Notes: generated from the letters alone by a model not told the origin. A stretch of DNA of 64,000 nucleotides from an uncultured Desulfospira sp. (GCA_963663165.1 OY760175.1:5696001-5760000); one strand, 5' to 3'; counted from the stretch's first letter, positions 37,956 through 64,000 are shown. Program-made: numbers and translations.

Positions 37956-39767
37956 ATGAAATTCGGAAAACAGCATCACCATATCATTTCACCTTATATG
38001 ATGGCCGGGGTCCTGGTGGTTCTTCTGCCCGTTTTTGTCTATATGACCTTTGACCGGATGGAACGGCAGAGGGCCTATATCCGGGGAAGGCTCCTGGCTG
38101 AAGGCAGTTCCCTGATCCGGACCTTTGAGGCCGGGACCCGGGCCGGAATGCTGTCCATGCCCTGGGGAATCCGCCGGGTCCAGTCCATGATTCTGGAAAC
38201 CTCATTTCAGCCGGATATCTCCTATATTATGATCACCTCAAAGACCGGACAAATCCTGGCCCATTCAGATGAGTCCATGGTCGGGGAACAGTTTGAGGGC
38301 ATGCCGGACCTGGAAAACCTTGACACGGATGCACTTTCATTTTCAGGTCGGACCCGGAACCTTGATGAAGGCCGGGTGTTTGAGGTGTTTAAACGGTTCA
38401 CTCCCATGAAAAGCCGGTTTATAGGCCGTCCCGGCCACAGGGGAGAAAAGCGGATGCACCGTCCCCTGCCCGCGCCTGATTTTGATATGGATGATAAAGG
38501 CCCTGTCCGGGAGTCATTTGAATTTAAAGCGCCCGGCGGTTCTCCGGTTTTCACCGATTCCGGGGAATACTACATCTTTGCCGGGTTTTCCATGGACCGG
38601 GCGAACCTGCTCGAACGGCAGTTGATCAAACACTCTGTGGGATCGGGAATTCTATTCTTTTTATTATGCGGTGCCGGGGTGATCAGCCTCATGGCCTATC
38701 AGCGGTACCGGTCTGCCCGGGCTGACCTCACCCAGGTTCAGGCCTTTTCAGACAATGTGGTGGAGAACATGCCCTCCGGCCTGGTCACCATTGATACCGG
38801 CCATACCATTACCCTGGTCAATCAGGCGGCGGTGAACATTCTGGGAAACGGCTTTAGCCGGCCGTTCCCTGAGATGAAGGCGATGGCGGACCATATGGCG
38901 GTGTCCGGTGAAGCCATCCTAAAAGAGGTAACCCTGACAAGGCAAAAGGGGGGGGATTTAAGGCTTGATATCACCGGCTCTCCCATCCGGAACAAAGACG
39001 GGCAGGTCATCGGTTTTTTGTTTTTGTTTAAGGATATGACCCAGATTCGTTCTTTGCAAAAGGAGGTGGAAACCACCCGCAGGCTGGCCGCCATCGGCAA
39101 ACTGGCCGGGGGTGTGGCCCACGAGATCCGGAACCCCTTAAGCTCCATCAAGGGGTTTGCCACTTATTTCATGAAACGGTACGAAAATGAGCCGGCAGAC
39201 GTTGAAACCGCCCGGATCATGGTCCAGGAAGTCGAACGGATCAACCGGTCCATTACCCAGCTGTTAGAGTTTGCCAAACCCATGGCCGTGGAAAAAAAGA
39301 CAGTGGAGATTGAGCCCTTAATTACCCATTCCCTGCGCCTGGCCGACCATGATTTCAAAGAGAAAAATATTCACACCAAAGTGGAAATTGATCCCGGCCT
39401 GTCCAGGTTTATGACCGATCCGGACCGGCTTAACCAGGTGCTGCTTAACTTGTATATCAATGCCGTCAATGCCATGGAGCCGGAAGGAAAACTCTTTGTC
39501 CGGGCAGGGTTTGGCCCGGACAAACGCCATTTTGAAATTGAAGTGGGCGATACCGGCTGCGGCATGGACCAGGAGACCCTGGAGAATATCTTTGATCCCT
39601 ATTTTACCACCCGCCAGAGCGGCACCGGTTTAGGGCTGTCCATTGTCCATAGGATTGTGGAAAATCTGGGCGGTGACATCCGGGTAGACAGTGTGCCGGG
39701 AAAGGGGACAAGGTTTACGCTTTCGTTTTTATTGGCTGCTGCCAAAGAAAAGGACCTTAACAAATGA
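37956..39767 (+). CDS. ZraS/HydH-like sensor histidine kinase
   Basis: Two TMs, PAS, AHEIRNPL H-box, N/G1/F/G2 boxes. Confidence 0.9.
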   Translation: MKFGKQHHHIISPYMMAGVLVVLLPVFVYMTFDRMERQRAYIRGRLLAEGSSLIRTFEAGTRAGMLSMPWGIRRVQSMILETSFQPDISYIMITSKTGQILAHSDESMVGEQFEGMPDLENLDTDALSFSGRTRNLDEGRVFEVFKRFTPMKSRFIGRPGHRGEKRMHRPLPAPDFDMDDKGPVRESFEFKAPGGSPVFTDSGEYYIFAGFSMDRANLLERQLIKHSVGSGILFFLLCGAGVISLMAYQRYRSARADLTQVQAFSDNVVENMPSGLVTIDTGHTITLVNQAAVNILGNGFSRPFPEMKAMADHMAVSGEAILKEVTLTRQKGGDLRLDITGSPIRNKDGQVIGFLFLFKDMTQIRSLQKEVETTRRLAAIGKLAGGVAHEIRNPLSSIKGFATYFMKRYENEPADVETARIMVQEVERINRSITQLLEFAKPMAVEKKTVEIEPLITHSLRLADHDFKEKNIHTKVEIDPGLSRFMTDPDRLNQVLLNLYINAVNAMEPEGKLFVRAGFGPDKRHFEIEVGDTGCGMDQETLENIFDPYFTTRQSGTGLGLSIVHRIVENLGGDIRVDSVPGKGTRFTLSFLLAAAKEKDLNK

Positions 39768-41116
39768 AGAAAAAAATACTGGTGGTTGATGATGACGCGG
39801 CCCACGCAAGAATGCTCAACACGCTGATCGCGGACTGGGGGTATGAGGTGTTCAGGACCGGTGACGGGGGTGCCGGGGTGGACATGGTCAAAAACGAGCC
39901 CTTTGATCTGGTGCTCATGGACATCCGGATGATCAACATGTCGGGCATGGAGGCCTTAAGCCTGATCCTTGAATATAACCCGTCGCTGCCCGTTATCATG
40001 ATGACGGCCTATTCGTCCGTGGATACCGCTGTCAGGGCGTTGAAAATCGGTGCCTATGATTACCTGACCAAGCCCCTTGATTTTGATAAACTCAAACTGA
40101 CCCTGGACCGGGCCATGGAACGGATTTCGTTAAAATCGGAAAACCAGGCCCTCAAAGACCGGATCAAAAGTGAGCGCTTTGACCATAATATTTTAGGGAA
40201 GAGCCGGGCCATGGCCGCCCTGCTGGATACCATCAAGATGGTGGCCCCCACTGATGCCAATGTCCTGGTGACCGGGGAGTCTGGCACGGGAAAGGAGTTG
40301 GTGTCATCGGCCCTTCATGCCAACAGCCCGAGAAAGGATGCCCCCTTTGTGAGAATCAACTGTGCGGCCATCACGGAAACCCTGCTGGAATCCGAATTGT
40401 TCGGCCATGAGAAAGGGGCGTTTACCGGGGCGGAACGAAAGCGGAAAGGAAAGTTTTTGCAGGCAGACAAAGGCAGCATTCTCTTAGATGAAATCGGGGA
40501 AATGAGCCTGGCCATGCAGGCCAAGCTGCTCCGGGTGATCCAGGAAAAAGAGGTGACCCCCGTAGGCAGTGACCAGAGTACCACTGTGGATGTCCGGGTG
40601 ATTGCCGCCACCAACCGGGACCTTAAGGCCATGTCCCTTGACGGCGGTTTCCGCCAGGACCTCTACTACCGCCTTAACGTGGTGTCCATTGATATCCCGC
40701 CGTTAAGGGAACGGCCTGAAGACATCCCGGAGCTGGCCCTTCACTTTCTGGATCATTTTTCCAAAAAGAACCGCAAAGAGCTCAAAGGATTTTCCCCGGA
40801 CGCCATGGATGCCATGATCCGGTACCCGTGGCAGGGCAATGTCAGGGAACTGATGAACGCCGTGGAAAGGGGGGTGGTCATGGCCCGGACAGATTATATC
40901 TGCATCGAAAACCTGCCCTTTTCCCAGGGGGATCTGCCCGAGATGAGTGAAATTGAAACCGGGCTTGAAAATTTCAGCCTGTCTCAAATAGAAGAAAAGG
41001 CCATTTTATCCACCTTAGAGGCTGCCGGGGGGAATAAAAGCGAGGCATCCCGGCGGCTTGGCATTACCCGGAAAACATTGCTTAAAAAACTCAAACAATA
41101 TGGAAAAGAGAAATGA
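39764..41116 (+). CDS. ZraR-like sigma54-dependent response regulator
   Basis: REC, GESGTGKE, GAFTGA and Fis-type HTH. Confidence 0.92.
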   Translation: MKKKILVVDDDAAHARMLNTLIADWGYEVFRTGDGGAGVDMVKNEPFDLVLMDIRMINMSGMEALSLILEYNPSLPVIMMTAYSSVDTAVRALKIGAYDYLTKPLDFDKLKLTLDRAMERISLKSENQALKDRIKSERFDHNILGKSRAMAALLDTIKMVAPTDANVLVTGESGTGKELVSSALHANSPRKDAPFVRINCAAITETLLESELFGHEKGAFTGAERKRKGKFLQADKGSILLDEIGEMSLAMQAKLLRVIQEKEVTPVGSDQSTTVDVRVIAATNRDLKAMSLDGGFRQDLYYRLNVVSIDIPPLRERPEDIPELALHFLDHFSKKNRKELKGFSPDAMDAMIRYPWQGNVRELMNAVERGVVMARTDYICIENLPFSQGDLPEMSEIETGLENFSLSQIEEKAILSTLEAAGGNKSEASRRLGITRKTLLKKLKQYGKEK

Positions 41117-49755: not shown

Positions 49756-50235
49756 TTCGGATTTTATGGCCCTGATTCTTTCTTCAATGTCAAAGGCGTT
49801 GATGTCCTGACCCGGAAAAATGGCGATTCTTTTATACAGTTCGAGCAGCTCTTTTTCCAGTTTGACCGGCCTTGCCTTTTCAATGGAGAAATAGGCAAAC
49901 ATGGTGAGCATGACGGATTTGACCTGTTTTTCCTTGGGGCTGATCATGACAAACTCAACCAGGTTTCTTAAGGCATCAAAGGTGAGCATCCGGCTCCAGA
50001 TTTCTAAGTCTTCTCCCATGCGGGCAGGTTTGAGATACCGGATGTTGTGGGAGACCACGGCCCAGCCTTTTCCTGTTTTTTTCGCATGTTCAAAAACATC
50101 CAGGATGTGGTTGGTTCTCAGCTGTTCTTCCCTGGCATTGAGGAAATAGCTCAGGTAATGGGCATTGTTCAGATGGGAATAAGGATCACAGTCTTCAAAA
50201 TTGACCCTTTTTATACTTTTCATGGCCTGTTGCAT
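49726..50235 (-). CDS. acyl-CoA thioesterase (4HBT/FcbC-like)
   Basis: DCDPYSHLNNAHYLSYFLNARE motif. Confidence 0.85.
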   Translation of the reverse strand: MQQAMKSIKRVNFEDCDPYSHLNNAHYLSYFLNAREEQLRTNHILDVFEHAKKTGKGWAVVSHNIRYLKPARMGEDLEIWSRMLTFDALRNLVEFVMISPKEKQVKSVMLTMFAYFSIEKARPVKLEKELLELYKRIAIFPGQDINAFDIEERIRAIKSELTATGRLDC

Positions 50236-50359
50236 GGGGCTTATTTATAGAACCGGCGATGAAAATACAAGAGAAAATAATGGGCTTGATCCCGAGGCTG
50301 GTTTGTGGGAAGGTAGACATACCTTCAAACCGCTCCGCCAAACAATATGGAGCCATGCC

Positions 50360-51745
50360 ATGGAAATAGAACATATATTGGACAGGTTGTCCCAGGGGAC
50401 AACGGAAATTATTCTTGAAAGCATTTCCGACGGGGTGTTTACCGTGGACCATGAATGGAAGATCCTGTCCTTTAACCGGGCGGCTGAAAAGATTACCGGA
50501 ATTTCCAGGGAGGACGCCATCGGCAGCTTCTGCTGGAATGTGTTCCGGTCCAATATGTGTGAGGACCGGTGCGCCTTGAAAAAAGCCATGGAAGAGGGGC
50601 GGTCCTGTTACTGCACGTCCACCTATATTATTAACGCGGACAAAGAAAAAATCCCCACCACAGTGGCCACAGCCCCGTTAAAGGACCGGAACGGCAATAT
50701 CATCGGCGGCGTGGAAACTTTCAGGGACCACAGCCTGGTCGAAGGATTGAGAAAAAAACTGTTCAACGGGTTTTGCCTCGGGGATATGATCAGCCGCAGT
50801 GCGGCCATGGGCAAGATTTTCAAGATTCTGCCCCAGATCGCCCAGAGCGATTCCACGGTCCTGATCACCGGCGAGACCGGAACGGGAAAAGGGCTTCTGG
50901 CAAAGGCCATTCATGATTTGAGCTTAAGGAAAGGCCATCCGTTTGTGGAAATCAACTGCGGGGCGTTCCCGGATACCCTTCTGGAATCTGAGCTTTTCGG
51001 CTACAAGGCCGGGGCCTTTACCCATGCGGTCAAAACCAAGCCCGGCCAGTTTTCCCTTGCCGATAAAGGGACCATTCTCTTAGATGAAATCGGAGACACC
51101 AGCCCGTCATTTCAGATCAAGCTGCTCAGGGTCTTAGAAGAAAAATCCTTTCTGCCTTTGGGGGCTGTTAAAAAAGAACATGTGAATGTCCGGATTATTG
51201 CCGCCACCAACAAGGATATCAACCGGATGGTGGATAAGAACAGCTTCCGGCAGGATCTGTTTTACCGGATCAACGTGGTCCAGCTCAGACTGCCGCCCCT
51301 GCGGGAAAGAATGGAGGACATCCCGGCGCTTGTGGATCATTTTATTAAAAATTTAAACCGGATCCGGGGCACCTCGGTGACCGGCATCAGCCGGTCTGCC
51401 TTAGAGTTTCTCATGGCCCATGATTACCCGGGGAACATCAGAGAACTTGAAAATATCGTGGAGCATGCCTTTGTCCTGTGTACCCGAGGAGAGATCCTTC
51501 CCGAACACCTTCCCCACCATATCAGCAGTGAAACCGAACCCTTTGAAACGGAACCCGGTTTTGAAAAGTTCCCCTTAAAGGCAGCTGAAATAAAGGTCAT
51601 TAAAACCTACCTGAAAAAACACAACTATGACCGGAAGGCCACGGCCAAAGCCTTGGGCATCCATAAAAGCACCCTGTTTCGGAAGATCAATAAGCTCGGG
51701 ATCACGCTGCCCGCCATTGACGGCCGGTTCAGGAAGAGGGGGTAG
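50360..51745 (+). CDS. PAS-domain sigma54 activator (OrpR-like)
   Basis: PAS with C-x8-C-x3-C (CWNVFRSNMCEDRC), GETGTGKG, GAFTHA, HTH; GGAG RBS before ATG 50360. Confidence 0.88.
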   Translation: MEIEHILDRLSQGTTEIILESISDGVFTVDHEWKILSFNRAAEKITGISREDAIGSFCWNVFRSNMCEDRCALKKAMEEGRSCYCTSTYIINADKEKIPTTVATAPLKDRNGNIIGGVETFRDHSLVEGLRKKLFNGFCLGDMISRSAAMGKIFKILPQIAQSDSTVLITGETGTGKGLLAKAIHDLSLRKGHPFVEINCGAFPDTLLESELFGYKAGAFTHAVKTKPGQFSLADKGTILLDEIGDTSPSFQIKLLRVLEEKSFLPLGAVKKEHVNVRIIAATNKDINRMVDKNSFRQDLFYRINVVQLRLPPLRERMEDIPALVDHFIKNLNRIRGTSVTGISRSALEFLMAHDYPGNIRELENIVEHAFVLCTRGEILPEHLPHHISSETEPFETEPGFEKFPLKAAEIKVIKTYLKKHNYDRKATAKALGIHKSTLFRKINKLGITLPAIDGRFRKRG

Positions 51746-51750
51746 TGGCC

Positions 51751-51766
51751 TGGCATGTTCTTTGCT
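51751..51766 (+). promoter_or_regulatory. sigma54 promoter
   Basis: TGGCAT-GTTCT-TTGCT. Confidence 0.75.
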
Positions 51767-52186: not shown

Positions 52187-52189
52187 GGT

Positions 52190-52223
52190 TGCAATATTGC
52201 ATTTTACATGTGGGCAATATTGC
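52190..52223. promoter_or_regulatory. tandem palindromic enhancer-like sites
   Basis: GCAATATTGC at 52191 and 52214, ~100-130 bp upstream of a sigma54 promoter. Confidence 0.7.
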
Positions 52224-52319
52224 GTTATTCTTTGAGTTGCCCGGGGCAGGGGTCATTTTTCATAAAATTTTTGGCCTGTATTTTAGGACCTTACAATAAG
52301 TGGTGCAATTGGATGGCTC

Positions 52320-52335
52320 CGGCATGAAGTTTGCT
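52320..52335 (+). promoter_or_regulatory. sigma54 promoter of the kinase-hdr operon
   Basis: CGGCAT-GAAGT-TTGCT. Confidence 0.7.
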
Positions 52336-52469: not shown

Positions 52470-54038
52470 ATGGCCCTTCCGGTAAGCTGGAAAATTTTGC
52501 TCATAGATGATGAAAAAGATATCCGGGAAATTATCGGCATTACCCTGGAAGATGCCGGATATACGGTTGTCTATGCCCCTGACGGCCATACCGGCCTTAT
52601 GCTGGCGGCCCGGGAAAACCCCCAGATCGTGATCACGGACATCAAGATGCCCGGCCTGAACGGCCTGGAAGTCCTTGAAAAAATAAAAAAGCTCAAGCCG
52701 GAAACCGAAGTTATCGTCACCACAGGGTACGGCGATGTTGAAAAGGCGGTGACCGCCCTTCAATACGATGCCTCGGATTTTATTTCCAAACCCATTGAGG
52801 ACAAGACCCTTCACATGGCCCTGAAACGGGCCAAACAGCGGTATCTGGACAGAAAACAACTCTCGGACTACACCCTTTTACTGGAAAATGAAAACCTGAA
52901 AACCAGTGCCGAGCTGGTTAAAAATGTGGAATTTCAAAGCAGCCTGATTGAAAATTCCATGGACGGCATCCTTGGATGCGACCACCAGGATCTGGTGATT
53001 ACCTATAACCGTTCCATGGAAAACCTGCTCGGATACCCAAAGACCGAAGTTTTAAAGAAAAGGAAGATCCAGGAGCTCTTTGCCCCGGATGCGGTTTCCC
53101 GCCTGAAACAGGATCTTGCCGGCAAAGGCTTTGGGGGGATCAATAAGCTGACCTTTTATGAAACCGCCATGCTGTCACAGCATAAGGAAGAGATCCCGGT
53201 CCAGCTGTCCGGGTTTATTTTAAGGCCGGACAACATGGAAGACGTCATGGTTCTCTTTGTGGCTGATCTTCGCCAGGTCAGGAACCTGGAACAGGAAAAA
53301 GCGGACCAGGCCCGGATGCTTCACCAGGAAAAGATGATTTCCTTGGGACGGCTTGCCGCCTCCATTGTTCATGAGATCAACAATCCCCTGTCCGGGATAT
53401 TAAATTATATCCGGTTGATGATTAAAAAGCTGGGAAGGGAAATTGAAAACGGCGAAGGATCTGAAGAATCGGAAAAATTCAAGTCCTACCTGACCATTGT
53501 AGAATCCGAAACCCAGCGGTGTTCGGACCTGGTTTCCGGGCTACTCAAATTTTCCCGGAAGACCACCCTGGAAAAAAAGAAGATTGACGTCAATGAGCTT
53601 GTGGACCACAGCCTGATGCTGTGCAACCACAAGCTCGAACTGAGCAACATTGTGCTTAAAAAAAAGTACGCCCCGGGCACTTCTCATGTGTTTGGCGATT
53701 TCAACCAGTTGGAACAATGCATCATCAACCTGATTTTCAATGCCATCGACGCCATGGAAAAGGGCGGTATCCTGGTGGTGAAAACCGGGTTCCTCAAACA
53801 GGAAAACCTGGTTTTTATTTCCGTTAAAGACAATGGCAAAGGCATCCCAAAACAGGAACTCAACTTTATATTTGAGCCTTTTTTCACCACCAAAAAGGAA
53901 GGGCACGGTGTGGGCTTAGGCCTGTCCACGGCCTACGGCATCGTGGAAAACCATAAAGGAACCATTGTGGTGGAGTCCATTGAGGACCTGGGCTCGGAGT
54001 TTATGATTAAGTTGCCGCCCGAAAGGGAAATAGGCTGA
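52470..54038 (+). CDS. cytoplasmic hybrid histidine kinase (REC-PAS-HisKA-HATPase)
   Basis: LIDDE / TDIKMPG receiver, PAS, VHEINNPL, FEPFFTTK..GVGLGL; no TM segment. Confidence 0.92.
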   Translation: MALPVSWKILLIDDEKDIREIIGITLEDAGYTVVYAPDGHTGLMLAARENPQIVITDIKMPGLNGLEVLEKIKKLKPETEVIVTTGYGDVEKAVTALQYDASDFISKPIEDKTLHMALKRAKQRYLDRKQLSDYTLLLENENLKTSAELVKNVEFQSSLIENSMDGILGCDHQDLVITYNRSMENLLGYPKTEVLKKRKIQELFAPDAVSRLKQDLAGKGFGGINKLTFYETAMLSQHKEEIPVQLSGFILRPDNMEDVMVLFVADLRQVRNLEQEKADQARMLHQEKMISLGRLAASIVHEINNPLSGILNYIRLMIKKLGREIENGEGSEESEKFKSYLTIVESETQRCSDLVSGLLKFSRKTTLEKKKIDVNELVDHSLMLCNHKLELSNIVLKKKYAPGTSHVFGDFNQLEQCIINLIFNAIDAMEKGGILVVKTGFLKQENLVFISVKDNGKGIPKQELNFIFEPFFTTKKEGHGVGLGLSTAYGIVENHKGTIVVESIEDLGSEFMIKLPPEREIG

Positions 54039-57100: not shown

Positions 57101-57556
57101 CGGGAAGATGCCCCGGACATTGGCAGGATTTTAGGGGTGAACCAGGGCGCAGACGGGTTTTTCTTAGAAGAACACCCCAAGCTCGGCCCCTTGAACACGG
57201 CATCTGAAGGCGTGTTCCTGGCCGGGTGCTGCCAGAAACCCATGGATATCCCGGACACGGTTTCCCAGGCGTCGGGGGCGGCGGCCAAGGCCCTGTCCTT
57301 AGCGACCCGGGGCGTGGTGGAAATCGCCCCCACCATTTCCCATATTGACCCGGATATCTGCATCGGGTGCAAAACCTGTATCGGGCTTTGCCCCTATTCC
57401 GCTATTGAATTTGATGAACGGCGCGGCGTGTCCGTGGTCAATGAGGCCGTGTGCAAGGGATGCGGCTCCTGCTCCGGGGTCTGTCCGTCCGGGGCTGCCG
57501 CCAGCCGCCATTTTACACCCAGACAGATTTTTGCAGAAATAGGAGGGATTCTTTAA
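54122..57556 (+). CDS. hdrA: HdrL-type heterodisulfide reductase subunit A with inserted GltD-like NAD(P)H-binding module
   Basis: CHCGVNIA, DKTFPTLDCAAC, HCVGSRD..YCSRVCCMYALK; insert at ~55030-56460 with GRVCPHPCE, GAGPCG, GGGNVAVD. Confidence 0.9.
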   Translation: MTQARPEPDRSHPPQLKIGFYICHCGVNIAGKVDVENVRDYVATLEGVHVSRDYKFMCSEPGQAMIEKDIKEQGLNRVVVASCSPRLHGKTFMEACRRAGLNPYYFQMASVREQVSWVTADEIVATTKARHLAHAAVDRVKYHASLTTKTSGVNPNVVVIGGGIAGMQAAIDIGNSGHKVFLIEKDTTIGGHMLQFDKTFPTLDCAACIGTPKMVEVGQNPNIELLSFSEVTDVSGFIGNFTVTVKRNPRYVREDLCTGCGECAKACPVSIPNSWDLGMADRKATGRAFPQAIPITFNIEKKDRAPCQETCPAGINVQGYIQLIKLKKFDLAAKMVMERAPFPGVLGRVCPHPCESQCRRSQVDQPVAIRELKRFAADLGFPGPEDIPKILDRDEKVAVIGAGPCGLTAAYFLRLKGYRVTVYEKLPVPGGMLKTGIPSYRLPDKVLDQEINHILDHGVTLVTGKAFGTDITYDGLVSDGFSALFLSAGAHVSLTLGLAGETDTPGVMDAVSFLRDVNLGNHTDLGAKVVVIGGGNVAVDAARCARRIKDAAVTILYRRTRDEMPAYAEEIEGAIEERVELEPLTTPIGIKSENGRVTGLQCVKNKLGEPDASGRRRPVIIEGSEFVIPCDTIIPAIGQQTDFSWADTIPGFEVTRNNRAKVDPETLQTTVDNLFAGGDMVTGPATVIEAIAQGRRAALGIDAFINKRLGQKSEASGADQDRIDHAAPDWADIPEDTKVQDRAHGKWAAPDSRVRSFAEVESGLTRDQAVTEAERCLNCGVCCECMECVRVCEAGAVDHFMEEEVLTLQAGSIILATGYDTMDPALSKPFGYGKFPNVFSALEFERLSNATGPTGGKILMRDETGGFTKPPDSVAIVHCVGSRDVNHHLYCSRVCCMYALKYTHLIKEKVGHDTKVYDFYIDMRCFGEGYEEFYQRCQEEGTIFIRGKVASVTDHAVSPEEKGKLIALAEDTLLGEPVRVPVDMVILCTAIQAREDAPDIGRILGVNQGADGFFLEEHPKLGPLNTASEGVFLAGCCQKPMDIPDTVSQASGAAAKALSLATRGVVEIAPTISHIDPDICIGCKTCIGLCPYSAIEFDERRGVSVVNEAVCKGCGSCSGVCPSGAAASRHFTPRQIFAEIGGIL

Positions 57557-58017
57557 TGAATGTCCAAGCGAACACCCAGGCCGTTGAACCGTCTTCTGAA
57601 CCGCCGGTATCCGCCTCAAATTCAGAACCGGTGATCATTGCCTTTGTCTGCAACTGGTGTACCTACACGGCCGCAGACCTGGCCGGCACCTCCCGCCTGA
57701 CCTATCCGGAAAATATCCGTCTGATCCGGGTCATGTGTACGGGCATGGTGGACCCCCAGTATGTGATCAAGGCCTTTCTGGAAGGGGCGGATGCGGTCCT
57801 GGTCTCCGGATGCCATCCCGGGGACTGCCACTATATCAACGGCAATTACAAGGCAAGAAGACGGATTCACATGCTCAAAACCATTCTGCCCCGGTTCGGC
57901 ATCGACACCAGACGGCTGCGGTTAACCTGGATCGGGGCCAGTGACGGGATTGAGTTTGCACATGTGATGACTCAGTTTAAGGATCAGGTGGTGGAGATGA
58001 TGAAAGCGGGAGAGTGA
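57556..58017 (+). CDS. mvhD: MvhD (methyl viologen-reducing hydrogenase delta subunit)
   Basis: FVCNWCTYTAADLAG, RVMCTG and GCHPGDCHY motifs; TAATG overlap with hdrA. Confidence 0.93.
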   Translation: MNVQANTQAVEPSSEPPVSASNSEPVIIAFVCNWCTYTAADLAGTSRLTYPENIRLIRVMCTGMVDPQYVIKAFLEGADAVLVSGCHPGDCHYINGNYKARRRIHMLKTILPRFGIDTRRLRLTWIGASDGIEFAHVMTQFKDQVVEMMKAGE

Positions 58018-58150: not shown

Positions 58151-59305
58151 ATGAAAGATCGTGTGGGCCTTATTGAACCGGAAGAGAACAGTATCGTTGG
58201 CGGGATTCGGGTTTTTTTTAAGGGGCTGCTGGAAAAAAAGATAGTGGATGCGCTGTTTTTGCCCATGGGCAGGGGAAAGGCCGGGGTGGTGATGCCGGCT
58301 TTGGTGACGGATCCGGGGCGACTGGACCGGGCGGAGCCGTTTTCTCCGTGCTTCCCTTTGAATTCGGGCCGGATGGCCTCCCGGATATCCTGGCGAAAGT
58401 CGGGCCGGAAAACGGCTGTTCTGTTAAGGCCTTGCGAACACCGGGCCTTTGTGGAGCTGGTCAAGCTCAAACAGGGCAGCCGGGACGAACTGATCCTGAT
58501 AGGGACCGACTGCCCCGGTGCCCTTTCATGGAAAGATGTTGACGGGTATCTGGCCGGGGGGGCATGGGATTCCGATGCCTTTGTGAAACAGGTGTTTGGC
58601 GGCAACCCGTCACCTTTTGAGGCGGATTTGAACGGATCTGGATTCAGCATGGCCTGTCAAACCTGTGAGCATTGCTTCCCTGAGAATACGGATATCAACC
58701 TGGTCCTTCACGGGGCAGATCTGGGTGCCGGTATCCTGGCCGAGGCGGTCACGGAAAAGGGCCAAACCGTTCTTGAGGCCATGACGCTGCCTAAGGCGGC
58801 ACTGCCGGACAACCGGGATGATTTAAAAGAGCAGATCCTGGCCGGTTCAGCCTCGGCCAATCAGGCCATGCTTGAAGGGATTGAGGCCAAAACCAATACC
58901 ATGGAAAAGCTTGAAACTTTCTTTGACCGGTGCATCAACTGTTATAACTGCCGGAACATGTGCCCGGTCTGTTATTGCCGGGAGTGTGTGTTCAACACCG
59001 ATGTCTTTGTCTATCAGCCGGTTCAGTACCTTCAATGGGCCGAGAACAAGGGCTGTGTAAAATTGCCCACGGACACGTTGTTTTACCACCTCACCCGCAT
59101 GGCCCATATGAGCCATGCCTGTGTGGGCTGCGGCCAGTGTTCCAATGCCTGTCCTTCGGATATCCCCGTGTTTGAGCTGTTCAAGAGCGTTGCGGCATTG
59201 ACCCAGGACGCCTTTGAGTACCGGCCCGGCATGGATGAGGACCAGGCCCCGCCCCTGGCCGTCTTCAGGGAGAAGGAGCTGGAGGAGGTTGTGGGGATTT
59301 CTTAA
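58151..59305 (+). CDS. FdhB/FrhB-like iron-sulfur protein
   Basis: RPCEHRAFVELVK..IGTDCPG, CINCYNCRNMCPVCYCREC and CVGCGQCSNACP motifs. Confidence 0.8.
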   Translation: MKDRVGLIEPEENSIVGGIRVFFKGLLEKKIVDALFLPMGRGKAGVVMPALVTDPGRLDRAEPFSPCFPLNSGRMASRISWRKSGRKTAVLLRPCEHRAFVELVKLKQGSRDELILIGTDCPGALSWKDVDGYLAGGAWDSDAFVKQVFGGNPSPFEADLNGSGFSMACQTCEHCFPENTDINLVLHGADLGAGILAEAVTEKGQTVLEAMTLPKAALPDNRDDLKEQILAGSASANQAMLEGIEAKTNTMEKLETFFDRCINCYNCRNMCPVCYCRECVFNTDVFVYQPVQYLQWAENKGCVKLPTDTLFYHLTRMAHMSHACVGCGQCSNACPSDIPVFELFKSVAALTQDAFEYRPGMDEDQAPPLAVFREKELEEVVGIS

Positions 59306-59514
59306 ATAGGCTGAAGGTGGATAGGCTGAAGGCTGAAGGTGGGCAGGTGAGAAAGTGAGAAAGTGAGAAAGTGAGCAGGTGGGAAAGTGAGAATGCCAGA
59401 TTGTTGGTCGGGACTGAAGGTTGGAGATAAATCAGATGAAGGATGTGAGCCTCCGGGGCTGGCACACTTCAGTCTAAACCCCTTCAGCCTAAAAACCTAA
59501 ACCGGGAGGTTGGT

Positions 59515-62500
59515 ATGAAAGACAGTGTTGGTCGGGTGCTGGTGGCCGGGGCCGGGGTGAGCGGGATTCGCTCGGCCCTGGATCTGGCCCGGATGGGTGT
59601 TCAGGTCCTGCTCATTGACAGGGCTGATCACACGGGGGGGCTGCTCAGCCAGCTGGATACCCAGTTCCCGTCCCAGGGGTGCGGGTTCTGCCGGGGGCTG
59701 CCCATGGTGGACCGGGACCGGTCTTCCCAAAGCTGTCTGAGAAAGGGGTTTGCCCATGATAACATAGAAATCCTTTTGTCCACCCAGATCATGTCCATTG
59801 AAGGCGAGGCCGGGAATTTTACCGTGACCCTGAAGCAGGGGCCGGCCATGATTGACCCGGAGCGGTGTATTGGGTGCGGTCAGTGCGAACCGGTCTGTCC
59901 CGTGGAAACAAAGGATTTCTTCAATGCCGGGATGACCCGGAAAAAAGCCGTGTACCTGCCCGTTCCCCAGTCCTTTTCCAATGCCTGGACCATTGATTCC
60001 ACGGCCTGTACCCGGTGCGGGGAGTGTGTGAAGGTCTGCCCGGTGGACGCCATCCGCCTCACGGGGCAGGACCGGGAAAGATTTAAGGTGCTGGTGGTTG
60101 ATGATGAGGCCATTGTCCGGGAGTCCACCCGGGAGTGGCTCAAGGAAGAGGGGTTTTTCACGGCCGCGGCGGATTCCGGGCAAAAGGCCCTGGAACTGCT
60201 GGCGGAAGGGGCGGAAAAGGAACAGCCCTTCAGCATGATGCTCACGGATATCAAGATGCCGGGCATGGACGGGGTGGAGTTGCTCACCCGGGCCAAAGAG
60301 ATCAGCCCGGATCTTACCGTGATCATGATGACCGCTTATGCAGCCGTGGATTCAGCTGTGGACGCCATGAAACTCGGGGCTATGGATTACCTGACCAAGC
60401 CCTTTGACCCGGATGTGCTGGTGGCCATGACCCTTGAGGTGTTCCAGGAATATGAAATGGCCAAGGCCCGTTCGGAAACCGTGGACGCCGTTATTCTTTC
60501 CGCCGGAGCCCGGCTGTTTGAACCGGAACGGACAAAGAATGCCTACGGATATGGGAGCCTTCCCGGTGTGGTCACCAGCCTGGAACTTGAACGGATGCTC
60601 AGCCCGGCCGGTCCGGCCGGCATGGATTTCCTTCACCCGGCCCGGGAAAGGCCGTTGGAGAAAATCGCCTGGTTCCAGTGCGTGGGGTCCCGGGATGTCC
60701 AGGATCAGGCCCCGTTCTGTTCTTCGGCCTGCTGCATGATTTCCATTAAACAGGCTGTCCTGGTCCAGAAACAGGCCAGGAAATCCGGCCGAAAGGTGGA
60801 GACCGTGATTTTTTACATGGACATGCGGACCATGGGCAAACCCTTTGAGCAATACCGGCAGCAGGCCCGGGACGAGTATGGGGTGAGGTTTGTCCGGGCC
60901 AGGATCCATTCCCTTGGAGAGACGGCAGATTCTGAACACCGGCGTCTGATGGCCCGGTATACCGATGATGGGGGCGCTCTTCATGAGGAGGGGTTTGACC
61001 TGGTGGCCCTGGCCGTGGGCACCCGGCCCGGCCGGCAGATGGAGGAGATTTCCAGGGCCAACCAGATTCAGATGAACGCTTTTGGCTTTGTTGAGCCCCA
61101 GGCCTTTTCCCTGGTTCAAACTTCCCGGGAGGGCATTTTTGCCGCCGGCACGGTCACCGGGTTTAATGATATTTCCGACAGCGTTGTGTCGGCATCGGCA
61201 GCGGCCATGGCAGCGGCCAAGGCGTTATCGGCCAACGGCACCCCCCTTTGGAAGCCGCTGGACGACCATGGCCCGGCCCTTCTGGCATCCCTTTCAAGAC
61301 AGATTCCCCAGATCGGAATCATTCTAAGTTTCAATGAAAAAATGGATGAGCCCGGATTCAAGGCCCTTAAGGCAGACCTTGAACGAGATCCGGATGTGGT
61401 CCGGGTGGAGGCCCGGGAAGAATTTGACCTGGACCGGCTGGCTGAGTTTGTCGATAAATTTAAATGCAACCGGCTGATCATAGGGCTTTGCCGGCCCCGG
61501 GAAGGCAGCGGGCTGATGAAATCCCTTCAAAAGGCAACCCGTCTGCCGGACCGGTTTATCGAGGTACTGGACATCAGCCGCCTGGATAATGCCAGGCCCC
61601 ATACCCGTTTGTCCCGGGCACTTAAGGTCAGGGTTTCCCGGCTTAAGTTTTTCAATCCAATGCCCGTTGAAAGCCTGGCAGGCCAGGTGCCTGAACCGTC
61701 CGCCCTGGTCATCGGGGGCGGGATCGCCGGCATGACGGCCAGCCGCTGCATGGCCGATGCCGGGTTCAAGGTGGACCTGGTGGAAAAAGGCGATGCCCTG
61801 GGCGGCAACCTGCGCTGGATGGCGCAGACCCCTCTGGGCCATGATATCCAGGCCTTTCTTGAGGACCAGGTTAAAAAAGTCGAATCCCACGAAAACATTA
61901 TGGTTTATAAAAACAGCGCCGTGGAAGGGGCTGTGGCCGTTCCGGGCGGGTTCACCAGTTTCCTTTCCCGGAAAACCAGCGAACCGGATGCTCCGGACAA
62001 CTTTTCCGTGACCCATGCCGTCACCCTTCTGGCCACGGGCGGTTCCCAGGCACCGCTGCCGGAAAGCGATTTCACTGACGGCACTCCAAATGCCGTCACC
62101 TTTACCCAGGAAGAATTTCAAAAGGCATTAACGGATGGCCAAGTGGCGCCTGAAAAGCTTGACACCGTGGTCATGGTCCAGTGCTCCGGGACCAGGACCC
62201 CGGCCACCCGGAACTACTGCTCGCGCATCTGCTGTGTCCGGGCCTTGAAAACAGCCCTGGATTTAAAAGAAAAAAATCCGGATATGATGATTTTTATCCT
62301 GTACCGGGACATGATGAGCTTCGGTTTTATGGAAGATCTGTACACCCGGGCCAGAGAAAAGGGGGTGCTTTTTATCCAGTACGAACCGGACCAGCCCCCC
62401 CGGGTTGACATTTCACCTGAAGGGGTGACGGTCACGGCAAGGGACCATGTCCTCAACCGTCCCGTTCAGATCCAGAGCGATGCTGTGATCCATGCCACGG

Positions 62501-62973
62501 GCATTGAGCCGGATCTTCCCAGGGGCCTTGCCGAACTCTACGGCGCCGGCCTGGACGAATTTAACTTCTTCAAGGAGGCGGATTACAAATTCAGGCCTGT
62601 GGACAGTATGAACTACCGGGTCTTTTCCTGCGGCCTCTGTCTGAAACCCAGCACCATTGACGAAAGCATTACCCAGGCCCAGGCCGCAGCGGCCCGGGCT
62701 CTCCAGATCCTGGGCCCGGAACGGTTAAGATCCGGCCGGGTGGTGGCCCACACCCGGACGGCCACCTGCACGGTCTGTGAAATGTGCGTCAATGCCTGTC
62801 CCTACGCGGCCCGATCCGTGGACCCCATTGAAGACAAAATCGTCATTGATCCCCTGGCCTGCCAGGGATGCGGGGTCTGCGCCGCGGTCTGTCCCAGTGA
62901 TTCGGCCATCCTGGAAGGCTTTACCGCCCAGCACATGTTCGACACCATAGACCAGATGATAATGGACCATTAA
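59515..62973 (+). CDS. hdrA: tandem HdrA-like flavoprotein with internal response-regulator receiver domain
   Basis: Two HdrA modules (GAGVSG..QCVGSRD..CSSACCMISIK; GGGIAG..QCSGTR..CSRICCVRALK), ferredoxin motifs, REC at ~60082-60450. Confidence 0.9.
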   Translation: MKDSVGRVLVAGAGVSGIRSALDLARMGVQVLLIDRADHTGGLLSQLDTQFPSQGCGFCRGLPMVDRDRSSQSCLRKGFAHDNIEILLSTQIMSIEGEAGNFTVTLKQGPAMIDPERCIGCGQCEPVCPVETKDFFNAGMTRKKAVYLPVPQSFSNAWTIDSTACTRCGECVKVCPVDAIRLTGQDRERFKVLVVDDEAIVRESTREWLKEEGFFTAAADSGQKALELLAEGAEKEQPFSMMLTDIKMPGMDGVELLTRAKEISPDLTVIMMTAYAAVDSAVDAMKLGAMDYLTKPFDPDVLVAMTLEVFQEYEMAKARSETVDAVILSAGARLFEPERTKNAYGYGSLPGVVTSLELERMLSPAGPAGMDFLHPARERPLEKIAWFQCVGSRDVQDQAPFCSSACCMISIKQAVLVQKQARKSGRKVETVIFYMDMRTMGKPFEQYRQQARDEYGVRFVRARIHSLGETADSEHRRLMARYTDDGGALHEEGFDLVALAVGTRPGRQMEEISRANQIQMNAFGFVEPQAFSLVQTSREGIFAAGTVTGFNDISDSVVSASAAAMAAAKALSANGTPLWKPLDDHGPALLASLSRQIPQIGIILSFNEKMDEPGFKALKADLERDPDVVRVEAREEFDLDRLAEFVDKFKCNRLIIGLCRPREGSGLMKSLQKATRLPDRFIEVLDISRLDNARPHTRLSRALKVRVSRLKFFNPMPVESLAGQVPEPSALVIGGGIAGMTASRCMADAGFKVDLVEKGDALGGNLRWMAQTPLGHDIQAFLEDQVKKVESHENIMVYKNSAVEGAVAVPGGFTSFLSRKTSEPDAPDNFSVTHAVTLLATGGSQAPLPESDFTDGTPNAVTFTQEEFQKALTDGQVAPEKLDTVVMVQCSGTRTPATRNYCSRICCVRALKTALDLKEKNPDMMIFILYRDMMSFGFMEDLYTRAREKGVLFIQYEPDQPPRVDISPEGVTVTARDHVLNRPVQIQSDAVIHATGIEPDLPRGLAELYGAGLDEFNFFKEADYKFRPVDSMNYRVFSCGLCLKPSTIDESITQAQAAAARALQILGPERLRSGRVVAHTRTATCTVCEMCVNACPYAARSVDPIEDKIVIDPLACQGCGVCAAVCPSDSAILEGFTAQHMFDTIDQMIMDH

Positions 62974-63060: not shown

Positions 63061-63606
63061 GTGATGACCCAGACAACCAAAGCACCGCCAAAGGAGGTCA
63101 TAAAGGTAAAGGAAATGCTCAAGACCTGCATCCAGTGCGGCACCTGCACCGGGTCCTGCCCCAATGCGCCATTCATGGACTTGACCCCCCGGAAAATGTG
63201 GCGCATGGTCCTGATGGACCGCCTGGACCAGTTGTTTTCAAGCAAGACCTTTATTTTGTGTTCGTCCTGTTACTACTGTACCCTGCGCTGCCCCCGGGGC
63301 CTTGAGCTGACAACGGCCATGGGGTTGTTAAAGCAGGCGTCCTCCAGAATGGATATAAAGGGGGCAAACCGGACAAGGCAATTTTACAAGGCCTTCATGG
63401 ACAGTGTGGAAAAGCACGGCAGGGTCAGGGAAACCGAGTTTATGACCCATTATTTCATGGCCATGAAAAATCCGTTGCTGCCCCTGGAATTTACACCGTT
63501 AGGGCTCAAGCTCATGGCCAAGGGGAAAATGCATTTTCAATCCCCCTTTGCCACGGGAAACAAGCTGTCCAAACTGTTTCAAAAAATCCGGGAACTGGAG
63601 GGCTGA
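63061..63606 (+). CDS. hdrC: heterodisulfide reductase subunit C-like
   Basis: CIQCGTCTGSCP and CSSCYYCTLRCPRG motifs. Confidence 0.88.
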   Translation: MMTQTTKAPPKEVIKVKEMLKTCIQCGTCTGSCPNAPFMDLTPRKMWRMVLMDRLDQLFSSKTFILCSSCYYCTLRCPRGLELTTAMGLLKQASSRMDIKGANRTRQFYKAFMDSVEKHGRVRETEFMTHYFMAMKNPLLPLEFTPLGLKLMAKGKMHFQSPFATGNKLSKLFQKIRELEG

Positions 63607-63607
63607 T

Positions 63608-64000
63608 ATGGATTACCTTTACTATCCGGGCTGTTCCCTTGAGGGTACGTCGGTTGAATACGATACGGCCACCCGGGTTTTCATGGACTGGGCCGGGGCA
63701 AATCTGACGGAGATAGAGGACTGGACCTGCTGCGGGGCCAGTGCCGCAGAATCAAGGTCTTACCTGCTGTCCCATGTCCTGCCGGCCAGAAACCTGGCCC
63801 TTGCGGAGACCCAGGATGAAACAAACCAGATCCTGGTGCCCTGCAGTGCCTGTTATCTGAACTTGAAAAAAACCGAGCAGGCCGTTAAAAAGGATAAGGC
63901 GTTTTTAGATCAAATTAATCAGGTCCTGGCAGAGGATGGCCTAACCTATCATGGAAGGGTTAAGGTCCGGCACCTGCTGGACGTGCTGTCCCGGGACGTG
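63608..64000 (+). CDS. hdrB: heterodisulfide reductase subunit B-like (runs off the window)
   Basis: Own translation: MDYLYYPGCSLEG..DWTCCGAS..ARNLALAE..PCSACYLNL (CCG domain). Confidence 0.9.
   Translation, partial: MDYLYYPGCSLEGTSVEYDTATRVFMDWAGANLTEIEDWTCCGASAAESRSYLLSHVLPARNLALAETQDETNQILVPCSACYLNLKKTEQAVKKDKAFLDQINQVLAEDGLTYHGRVKVRHLLDVLSRDV

Follow-up and report, generated by a model that had tools for sequence, protein, structure and literature searches.

An intact phospho-receiver domain inserted in a fused double HdrA of an uncultured Desulfospira sp. and encoded beside histidine kinases

A stretch of 64,000 nucleotides from an uncultured Desulfospira sp. (GCA_963663165.1 OY760175.1:5696001-5760000; hereafter the window) contains a gene, here called HdrA-REC, that encodes a fused double HdrA with an intact CheY-like receiver (REC) domain inserted in its first HdrA module. 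The gene lies in an operon for an Hdr-like complex, and three histidine kinases, HK1, HK2 and HK3, are encoded at the same locus (Table 1). The anatomy of the protein, its conservation and its gene neighbourhood were observed as described below. We consider it probable, with a rough probability of 0.6, that the phospho-acceptor D245 of this receiver is phosphorylated by the co-encoded kinases and that electron flow through the Hdr complex is thereby switched post-translationally. The insertion had been noticed in an earlier, database-free reading of this DNA (the sequence-only reading), which proposed that a soluble kinase of the same operon phosphorylates the enzyme.

The sequence-only reading had placed a complete receiver directly after the inserted 2[4Fe-4S] ferredoxin segment of the first HdrA module, at about 60082-60450. 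This was borne out by Pfam, by alignment to Protein Data Bank (PDB) sequences and by an AlphaFold2 model, and the coordinates fit those of Table 1. Pfam Response_reg (PF00072) matches amino acids (aa) 192-305 of HdrA-REC with an E value of 7e-30 (103.9 bits, cut-off 30.2), and the match is flanked by 4Fe-4S and flavin adenine dinucleotide (FAD)/pyridine-nucleotide-disulfide-oxidoreductase families. Among PDB sequences, aa 6-182 correspond to residues 144-310 and aa 318-515 to residues 319-507 of 5odc_A, the HdrA of Methanothermococcus thermolithotrophicus (PDB 5ODC), and aa 182-318 match the solved receivers Spo0F, FixJ, NtrC and CheY (E 1e-12 to 1e-22). Because the flanks align to HdrA and the intervening stretch to receivers, the receiver is a clean in-frame insertion; it comprises ~130 aa and separates HdrA residues ~310 and ~319, at the C-terminal border of the ferredoxin insert. 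Every motif quoted in the earlier reading is found in the translation at its place: VVDDE (aa 194-198), LTDIKMPGMDG with D245, MMTAY with T273, DYLTKPFD with Y292, K295 and P296, and, where HdrA sequence resumes, DAVILSAG (aa 324-331). The receiver therewith has the full CheY-type catalytic set, D196, D197, D245, T273, Y292 and K295, which we take to correspond to D12, D13, D57, T87, Y106 and K109 of CheY.

The AlphaFold2 model of HdrA-REC, built on an alignment of 115 relatives, had a mean predicted local distance difference test score (pLDDT) of 83.9 and a predicted template modelling score of 0.85. In it, aa 191-316 fold as a canonical (beta-alpha)5 receiver, whose five strand-helix pairs have a block pLDDT of 90-96. 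A short helix (185-189) precedes the first REC strand (191-195), and REC alpha5 (299-316) joins the HdrA strand 319-323 via two residues. In this model the receiver is predicted to be rigidly linked to the flavoprotein at the ferredoxin-domain hinge. The sequence-only reading had pointed to structure modelling as a way to place REC relative to the ferredoxin insert, and the HdrA alignment puts it at the C-terminal edge of that domain. When the model was searched with Foldseek, the top matches were HdrA chains (8rvu_A, E 9e-37; 5odc and 7bkb).

A single contig of 6.74 Mb contains the whole window, and the ferredoxin-REC-HdrA junction is spanned at only one place in the genome. Among the matches listed from a collection of 5.8 billion proteins, 120 out of 120 carry PF00072, cover 99-100% of the queried region and show 53-67% identity; most of them are 1130-1220 aa long, with a few shorter entries. 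A 201-aa junction was used as query against 401 genomes of the same GTDB order. It was found in 182 of these (140 of 279 high-quality genomes, 92 of 175 genera), nearly always at full length, in frames of ~1140-1190 aa. Of 401 genomes sampled across the phylum, 11 have the junction; 7 of these 11 fall outside the order, and in 6 of the 7 the match spans the junction completely. The search for proteins combining HdrA and REC, proposed in the sequence-only reading, thus returned the same junction many times, and the lack of homologues that would have pointed to misassembly was not what we found. It is virtually inconceivable that a response-regulator gene was fused to hdrA by an assembly or annotation artefact, given the single contig and the recurrence of the junction in 182/401 genomes and 120/120 listed database clusters, and misassembly was rejected.

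Conservation within the receiver is very high. D196, D197, E198, D245, T273 and Y292 are kept in 120/120 relatives and K295 in 119/120, and so loss of the Asp in orthologues, which the earlier reading had named as evidence against it, was not observed. Mean pairwise column identity is 0.68 in REC; it falls to 0.54-0.57 in the FAD domains and to 0.38 in the middle domain. REC is under strong constraint and is among the best conserved parts of the protein. These figures bear on the possibility that REC works independently of phosphorylation, as a structural or docking module for a partner subunit or for dimerisation, and that the kinases act on other targets. This would fit with HK2-family kinases being present in 82 genomes in which no junction was found and in non-Hdr contexts, and with the NtrC-type regulator found in 3 of 40 loci (see below). 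However, pseudo-receivers usually lose their catalytic residues, whereas D196, D197, D245 and T273 are invariant here and K295 nearly so, and kinases are adjacent in 33-37 of the 40 loci. We therefore hold a phosphorylation-independent role to be very improbable and retain phosphorylation of D245 as the preferred reading.

Fused HdrAs without the receiver (~1010-1050 aa) are far commoner than HdrA-REC; at a cut-off of E <= 1e-150 they were found in 274 of the 401 genomes of the phylum sample, frequently as two copies. One REC-less protein, from a Desulfobulbales metagenome-assembled genome (L076), aligns to HdrA-REC only over aa 2-186 and 323-1151 and therefore lacks exactly the receiver (aa 187-322). 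No kinase was found within 10 kb downstream at this single locus (n=1). The genome that carries HdrA-REC also encodes a REC-less fused HdrA of ~1021 aa (G000:C1:3881097-3884111, minus strand), which shares 38% identity with the REC-less protein from Desulfobulbales. An in-frame TGA, possibly for selenocysteine, is present in many of the phylum's homologs that lack REC.

Each of the three kinases keeps its putative phospho-accepting histidine. The sequence-only reading had described the first kinase, HK1, as a soluble REC-PAS-HisKA-HATPase protein; the Pfam domains match, and a sequence scan gave no transmembrane-like segment. Its H301 is kept in 19/19 orthologs. HK2 has two transmembrane segments around a periplasmic loop of ~160 aa that holds two heme-c-type motifs, CxxCH (C119/C122/H123) and CxxxCH (C162/C166/H167); the loop barely passes the Pfam family Mcp40H-20_sensor (28.8 vs 27 bits). 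Among 37 HK2 orthologs, CxxCH is retained in 35-36, CxxxCH in 36, and both H534 and the four Cys of the first PAS domain (PAS1) in all 37. To judge by these features HK2 looks like a redox sensor. H164 of HK3 is kept in 32/32 orthologs. Since HK1 and HK3 carry receivers of their own, the wiring is that of a multi-kinase network and not of a simple pair. The H-box HE(I/L)NxPL is common to HK1 and HK2, and HK3 has SHxIKG instead. The sequence RDSLKEWLEEEGF forms helix alpha1 of the receivers of HdrA-REC and of a Usp-REC-Usp protein encoded at some related loci, and the receivers of HK1 and HK3 differ from it there. These differences in alpha1 and H-box hint at two tiers, or two receiver classes, within one locus.

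To describe the conservation of the locus, a comparison was made of 40 loci, each of 20 kb, that represent 31 GTDB families, with ~7.5 kb covered downstream of the gene; an ortholog was counted as full at >=40% identity over >=70% of the query. Upstream of HdrA-REC, HdrL is present in 34 loci and the FdhB-like subunit in 37 (full length and directly upstream), and an MvhD-like match is found in 39/40; downstream, HdrC is present in 33 and HdrB in 32. Full HK2 lies directly downstream on the same strand in 28/40 loci and 21/31 families (any HK2-like match, 32/40), and full HK3 downstream on the same strand in 23/40 (any match, 27/40). Full HK1 was found in 15/40; in 11 of these loci it lies upstream, with the same strand orientation. 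One or more full kinase orthologs are present in 33/40 loci and some kinase-like match in 37/40. The sequence-only reading held that HdrA is co-encoded with its kinase and suggested looking for co-occurrence with the kinase at 52470-54038. Kinases are indeed conserved at the locus, but HK1, the one that was named, is the least conserved of the three, and HK2 and HK3 are better kept. It had also stated that no separate response regulator lies between this kinase and the window end; none is present up to base 64000, but the window cuts hdrB, and two more kinases follow.

The transcriptional activator encoded at the locus was also considered as the regulator served by the kinases. This PAS-type activator is found as a full ortholog in 13/40 loci (any match, 22/40). 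Pfam gives no Response_reg in it, and REC was likewise absent in 7/7 orthologs tested from other loci, which are PAS-AAA-HTH proteins. The conserved activator was rejected in this role, and because it has no receiver, the REC of HdrA is the only kinase-free receiver of the cluster in most loci.

At the level of whole genomes, 168 of the 182 junction-positive members of the order possess an HK2-family gene (E <= 1e-120), as do 82 of the 219 junction-negative ones; the genomes are related, hence these counts do not amount to a statistical test. HK2 being exclusive to HdrA-REC genomes was rejected on the same counts. Eight HK2 loci from junction-negative genomes comprised 6 paralogs in non-Hdr kinase/activator contexts, 1 false negative at a contig end and 1 locus with hdrB remnants only. 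By these comparisons HK2-type sensors form a wider family, and one of its members is tied to this operon.

The mechanism that we infer, including the phosphorylation itself, its cognate kinase and its effect on the enzyme, would run as follows. HK2 would sense the redox state via its periplasmic domain with two heme-c motifs and its Cys4 PAS domain, and would phosphorylate D245 either itself or by way of HK1 and HK3, the soluble REC-kinases. The resulting change in alpha4-beta5-alpha5 may pass via the two-residue linker into the flavoprotein, where it would reposition or occlude the inserted ferredoxin domain or alter complex assembly. In methanogen HdrA the low-potential branch leads from FAD to ferredoxin by way of this domain. 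Electron flow through the Hdr-like complex would in this way be switched after translation, and the PAS-type sigma-54 activator would set the transcription of the same operon. We tentatively extend this scheme to a two-component control of flavin-based bifurcation/confurcation, in which HK2 and two soluble REC-kinases would gate the low-potential ferredoxin branch within seconds without a change in expression, the same receiver class being re-used on Usp-REC-Usp in some genomes; in this extended form the proposal is a possible but rather doubtful one.

The phosphate might also carry information in the reverse direction. The enzyme would then be the sensor and REC a redox-gated phosphate acceptor or sink: the redox state or conformation of HdrA would set uptake or loss of phosphate at D245, drawing from or feeding the receivers of HK1 and HK3, and the kinase network would report the state of the Hdr complex. 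Three kinases, two of them with receivers, and in most loci no REC-bearing DNA-binding regulator are typical of a branched network with sinks; the two receiver classes in one locus (alpha1 as in RDSLKEWLEEEGF against HK1/HK3) and the rigid link between REC and the flavoprotein would suit such a role as well. On the other hand, no output of such a network is evident, the operon activator being without a receiver, and a sink would have no need for a precise internal insertion site that is kept in 182 genomes. We regard this direction as unlikely and keep to the view that the kinases act on the enzyme.

The host protein itself is a fused double HdrA, and the distribution of domains along the chain predicts that it functions as its own heterodimer. 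Pfam finds FAD/NAD Rossmann matches at aa 7-46 and 730-768. Module 1 (aa 1-575) has no HdrA N-terminal domain. Its first part contains the FAD Rossmann motif, C56/C59, which correspond to C194/C197 of 5odc_A in the PDB-sequence alignment, and the inserted ferredoxin domain with 8 Cys; C56, C59, C118, C121, C124, C128, C165, C168, C171 and C175 are invariant among 115 sequences. In its second part, the CxGSRD...CSSxCC cluster motif includes C389, C402, C406 and C407, which are invariant in the same set. Module 2 has neither the inserted ferredoxin domain nor the CxxC pair; its consensus at that place is LGGNLxWL, without a Cys at the position of C197. It aligns over aa 730-1065 to the HdrA-like 6tjr_A and over aa 1015-1151 to residues 514-652 of 5odc_A, and C890, C902, C906, C907 and the 8 C-terminal Cys are invariant among the 115 sequences. 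The chain therewith has one inserted 2x[4Fe-4S] ferredoxin domain (module 1) and one C-terminal domain of the same type (module 2), and all 16 Cys of the two are invariant. A profile of the middle domain, made from 35 relatives, matches residues 2-135 of 5odc_A, the HdrA N-terminal domain, with the Cys aligned (E 3.5e-14). An MvhD-like nature of the middle domain was rejected: hhalign against the MvhD of the window gave only E 0.35 and a probability of 0.2%, and the profile led to the HdrA N-terminal domain. Since module 1 has the C197-type Cys and module 2 is preceded by the N-terminal-type domain, the two modules divide the domains of an HdrA dimer between them; the N-terminal domain and the Cys197-type ligand are complementary between two modules of one chain, as is characteristic of a fused pseudo-heterodimer.

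Several observations weigh against the view that the kinases switch the electron flow of a working Hdr complex here. First, 7 of the 40 loci have no full kinase ortholog within 20 kb (L088, L097, L102 and L109 are broken or N-containing), and HK2-type kinases exist outside this locus, as is the case in the 82 junction-negative genomes. Secondly, in L087, L094 and L117 (3/40) an extra NtrC-type regulator follows an HK1-like kinase, and therefore a transcriptional target can exist. Thirdly, in proteomes of D. toluolica its orthologs, HdlA5BC, are reported to have gone undetected (PMC5109826). Fourthly, HdrA-REC scores far under the cut-offs of the NCBIfam HdrA equivalog models NF041778, NF041891 and NF040770 (426 bits vs 1400, 439 vs 1300 and 534 vs 1100, respectively) and is therefore a homolog of HdrA but not an equivalog. 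Finally, in this genome's copy the Cys pattern of the middle domain is S--C, that is, 3 of 4 conserved Cys are lost, whereas 113 of 115 aligned proteins have CCCC.

The loss of these Cys concerns the enzymatic activity in particular. According to PMC13518236, the N-terminal A3 cluster lies between the bifurcating FAD and the low-potential path, which in turn leads across the inserted ferredoxin domain. For this copy, canonical bifurcation is doubtful, because 3 of 4 Cys of the N-terminal-type cluster are lost and A3 sits on the way from FAD to the low-potential path; bifurcation by HdrA-REC would in any case be carried over by analogy from methanogen HdrA. The loss may be read more radically, namely that HdrA-REC of this genome is a decaying or re-purposed copy that no longer works like its relatives and in which the receiver is a retained relic. 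The aberrant Cys pattern itself, the homology of the damaged domain to the HdrA N-terminal cluster domain, and the identity of the middle domain to relatives, 29% vs 66% for REC, speak for decay. Against it, the frame is open over 1152 aa, the other cluster, FAD and REC residues are all intact, and so are the operon partners and all three kinases. Similar losses in the lineage of P0002, the nearest database relative, in which the pattern is CPTG, and in L106, where the Cys loss resembles that of this genome, suggest a tolerated variant; L081, the closest genome relative, keeps LCSCG. Decay is in our opinion highly unlikely, and a functional receiver under kinase control is still the reading that we prefer.

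Table 1. Features of the Hdr operon and of the HdrA-REC protein. Coordinates are those of the window, except where locus sequence L001, which extends past the window end, is named.
Feature	Coordinates	Strand	Basis or remark
Sigma-54 enhancer-binding protein, PAS-AAA+-HTH	50201-51745	+	Pfam Sigma54_activat (E 5e-65), PAS_9, HTH_8
Sigma-54-type -24/-12-like element TGGCATGTTCTTTGC	51751-51765	+	Just after activator gene; weak call
Nitro_FeMo-Co family small protein, 119 aa	51827-52186	+	Pfam, E 3.4e-8 (dinitrogenase FeMo-cofactor-binding)
Two GCAATATTGC palindromes and second sigma-54-like element	52189-52334	+	Element at 52320-52334, pattern with 2 mismatches
HK1, soluble REC-PAS-HisKA-HATPase hybrid kinase (D57, H301)	52470-54038	+	Pfam
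HdrL-type HdrA, 1144 aa	54122-57556	+	NCBIfam HdrA2, 751 bits (cut-off 1100); PRK12771 NAD(P)-binding, 540 bits
MvhD-type [2Fe-2S] subunit	57556-58017	+	Pfam FlpD, E 5e-52
FrhB/FdhB-like subunit, 384 aa, ferredoxin-type Cys motifs	58151-59305	+	Pfam Fer4 families; weak FrhB_FdhB_C, E 0.002
HdrA-REC gene, fused double HdrA with inserted receiver	59515-62973	+	Open frame, 1152 aa
HdrA module 1, first part (aa 1-186)	59515-60072	+	Aligns to 5odc_A 144-310
REC domain (aa 190-316)	60082-60462	+	Pfam match; phospho-acceptor D245 codon at 60247-60249
HdrA module 1, second part (aa 318-575)	60466-61239	+	Aligns to 5odc_A 319-507; FAD domain
Middle domain (aa 598-711)	61306-61647	+	Homolog of HdrA N-terminal [4Fe-4S] domain
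HdrA module 2 (aa 728-1152)	61696-62973	+	FAD domain and C-terminal 2x[4Fe-4S] ferredoxin domain
HdrC-like ferredoxin subunit	63061-63606	+	Pfam Fer4_17, Fer4_8
HdrB-like subunit (CCG domains)	63548-64000	+	Pfam CCG; cut by window end
HK2, HAMP-PAS-PAS-HisKA-HATPase, 770 aa	L001 1552-3864	+	Pfam; 552 bases past window end
HK3, REC-HATPase, 374 aa	L001 3861-4985	+	Pfam

The second HdrA-type protein of the operon, HdrL, is a complete HdrA with an N-terminal domain, in which the inserted ferredoxin domain is split in two by an NAD(P)H module of NfnB/GltD-like type. Its aa 14-301 correspond to residues 10-298 and its aa 780-1141 to residues 299-650 of 8rvu_a, and NfnA/GltD-like matches cover aa 304-790. 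The module is inserted between residues 298 and 299 of 8rvu_a, ~20 residues from the REC site in the neighbouring HdrA. The inserted ferredoxin domain therefore bears a graft in each of the two HdrA-type proteins that the operon encodes. Judged from these alignments, it is a hot spot for grafts, at a site that tolerates functional ones. The likely start of mvhD at 57556, read from the sequence together with its ribosome-binding site, overlaps the hdrL stop (TAATG). The spacer of 209 bp before the HdrA-REC gene holds tandem arrays of AGGCTGA (x4.4) and GTGAGAAA (x5.9) at 59308-59393. Beyond the window, HK2 starts 71 nt after hdrB and the start of HK3 overlaps the HK2 stop, all on the same strand. 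A terminator-like hairpin (L001 5077-5094) follows HK3. Past the hairpin, a convergent gene (L001 5494-8808, minus strand) encodes a protein of 1104 aa that has PKD domains and, at its C-terminus, a dockerin type I domain.

The PAS domain of the sigma-54 activator is 25% identical to PAS1 of HK2 (E 9e-11), with three Cys aligned. The element at 51751-51765 has one mismatch to TGGCAC-N5-TTGC, which we take to be the consensus. The second sigma-54-like element lies 135 bp before the HK1 start, with the palindromes ~100 bp upstream of it; together these could be activator sites and a promoter, which is possible from their arrangement. Across the 64-kb window the sigma-54 pattern was found 70 times vs 77 expected, which is not above chance, and the intergenic position alone is suggestive. 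A classical pair of a Cache/PAS histidine kinase and an NtrC-type REC-AAA-HTH regulator is encoded at 37956-41116, 11 kb upstream of the Hdr operon, and is set apart from it by opposite-strand genes and a flagellin gene.

Variation of the locus was seen in several of the genomes compared. A Usp-REC-Usp protein of 437-439 aa is encoded between hdrB and the kinases in L089 (14035-15348), L090 (14048-15361), L110 (3941-5260, minus strand) and L008 (15166-16485, minus strand), the first three being among the 40 loci compared; its receiver is 50-58% identical to the HdrA REC in L089, L090 and L110 and 47% in L008. The gene is not present at the locus of this window. In L003, L092, L095, L099, L100, L112 and L017, hdrCB is missing after the HdrA-REC gene and HK2 comes directly next. 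A protein of ~765-800 aa is encoded upstream of hdrL in the same loci except L017; the one in L003 (2668-4965) has Fer4 and two CCG domains (HdrD/HdrF-like) and a weak NarI-like match.

Full-text literature searches, whose coverage did not extend to the 2011 comparative-genomics review by Pereira or to the genome paper on D. toluolica, brought up no paper that treats a receiver within HdrA. The terms 'response reg', 'receiver' and 'kinase' are absent from a 2024 preprint that sorts out the domain architectures of HdrA (501 sequences, 11 architectures), and a 2018 survey of bifurcating enzymes has none of them either. The 2009 genome report on Desulfobacterium autotrophicum (PMC2702500) describes a locus VIII with tandem hdrL/hdrA4, fdhB, hdrC/B-like genes and kinase/regulator genes nearby. 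In the key to supplementary Fig. S3a/b of that report, a 'Histidinkinase response regulator receiver domaine' is one of the Pfam domains given for Hdr proteins; the main text is silent on it. The sequence-only reading knew of no characterised example, and the literature searches agree with this; the architecture, however, was already present in databases and in that figure key. Family members are named 'response regulator' by NCBI and 'heterodisulfide reductase subunit A/A2' by JGI, and the UniRef name of the D. toluolica member is 'HdlA5: heterodisulfide reductase-like protein, iron-sulfur subunit'. The present analysis flags this large protein family as inconsistently named, as a response regulator in one place and as heterodisulfide reductase subunit A in another.

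Regulation of HdrA-type complexes has so far been discussed as transcription or as intrinsic conformational gating, and we know of no characterised case of a receiver inserted in such an enzyme. HdrA-REC offers a concrete, testable case of signal-dependent switching of an Hdr-type enzyme. It bears on how anaerobes near the thermodynamic limit keep their pools of ferredoxin, NAD(P)H and thiols/disulfides in balance over short times, and the REC domain is kept inside HdrA, with sensor kinases, in roughly half the species sampled from a major order of sulfate-reducer-type marine bacteria. For structural work, the receiver would provide a natural handle to trap conformations of the Hdr complex, by BeF3- or by D245 variants.

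Response regulators with an enzymatic output include CheB, PleD/WspR, RpfG and RssB-type proteins. HdrA-REC resembles them in its catalytically complete CheY-type receiver, in a non-DNA-binding output and in being encoded beside histidine kinases. In contrast to them, its receiver is internal to the enzyme and not N-terminal, and the output is an iron-sulfur flavoprotein of energy metabolism. By its domain composition, HdrA-REC can be described as a predicted response regulator with an Hdr-type flavoenzyme output and an internally inserted receiver.

With methanogen HdrA (HdrABC-MvhAGD; 5ODC, 7BKB, 8RVU) the protein shares the FAD thioredoxin-reductase-like fold, the CxGSRD...CC motif, both ferredoxin domains, the C194/C197-type pair and the N-terminal-type domain, and MvhD and HdrCB homologs are encoded alongside. 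It differs in that two modules are fused with the domains split between them, in the receiver at ~310-319, in the lost ligands of the N-terminal-type cluster in this copy, and in a host lineage that is, by the names of relatives, of sulfate-reducer type. Fused HdrAs that form their 'own heterodimer' are described in the available part of PMC9012536 for HdrA3/HdrA4 of anaerobic methanotrophic archaea (ANME) and for the HdrA of MetFV-HdrABC-MvhD of Moorella. In these, as here, each chain has two modules, and the N-terminal domain and the Cys197-type ligand are complementary; a receiver is not mentioned in that part of the account. The order in HdrA3/HdrA4, as given there, is reversed with respect to the present protein, whose module 1 is of the Cys197 type and without the N-terminal domain. 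The HdrL of Desulfobacterium autotrophicum, an HdrA/glutamate-synthase fusion according to PMC2702500, belongs to the same type of operon and likewise has an extra domain on the inserted ferredoxin domain. However, the graft of HdrL is an NAD(P)H redox module inside the ferredoxin domain, whereas that of HdrA-REC is a signalling domain at its C-terminal edge.

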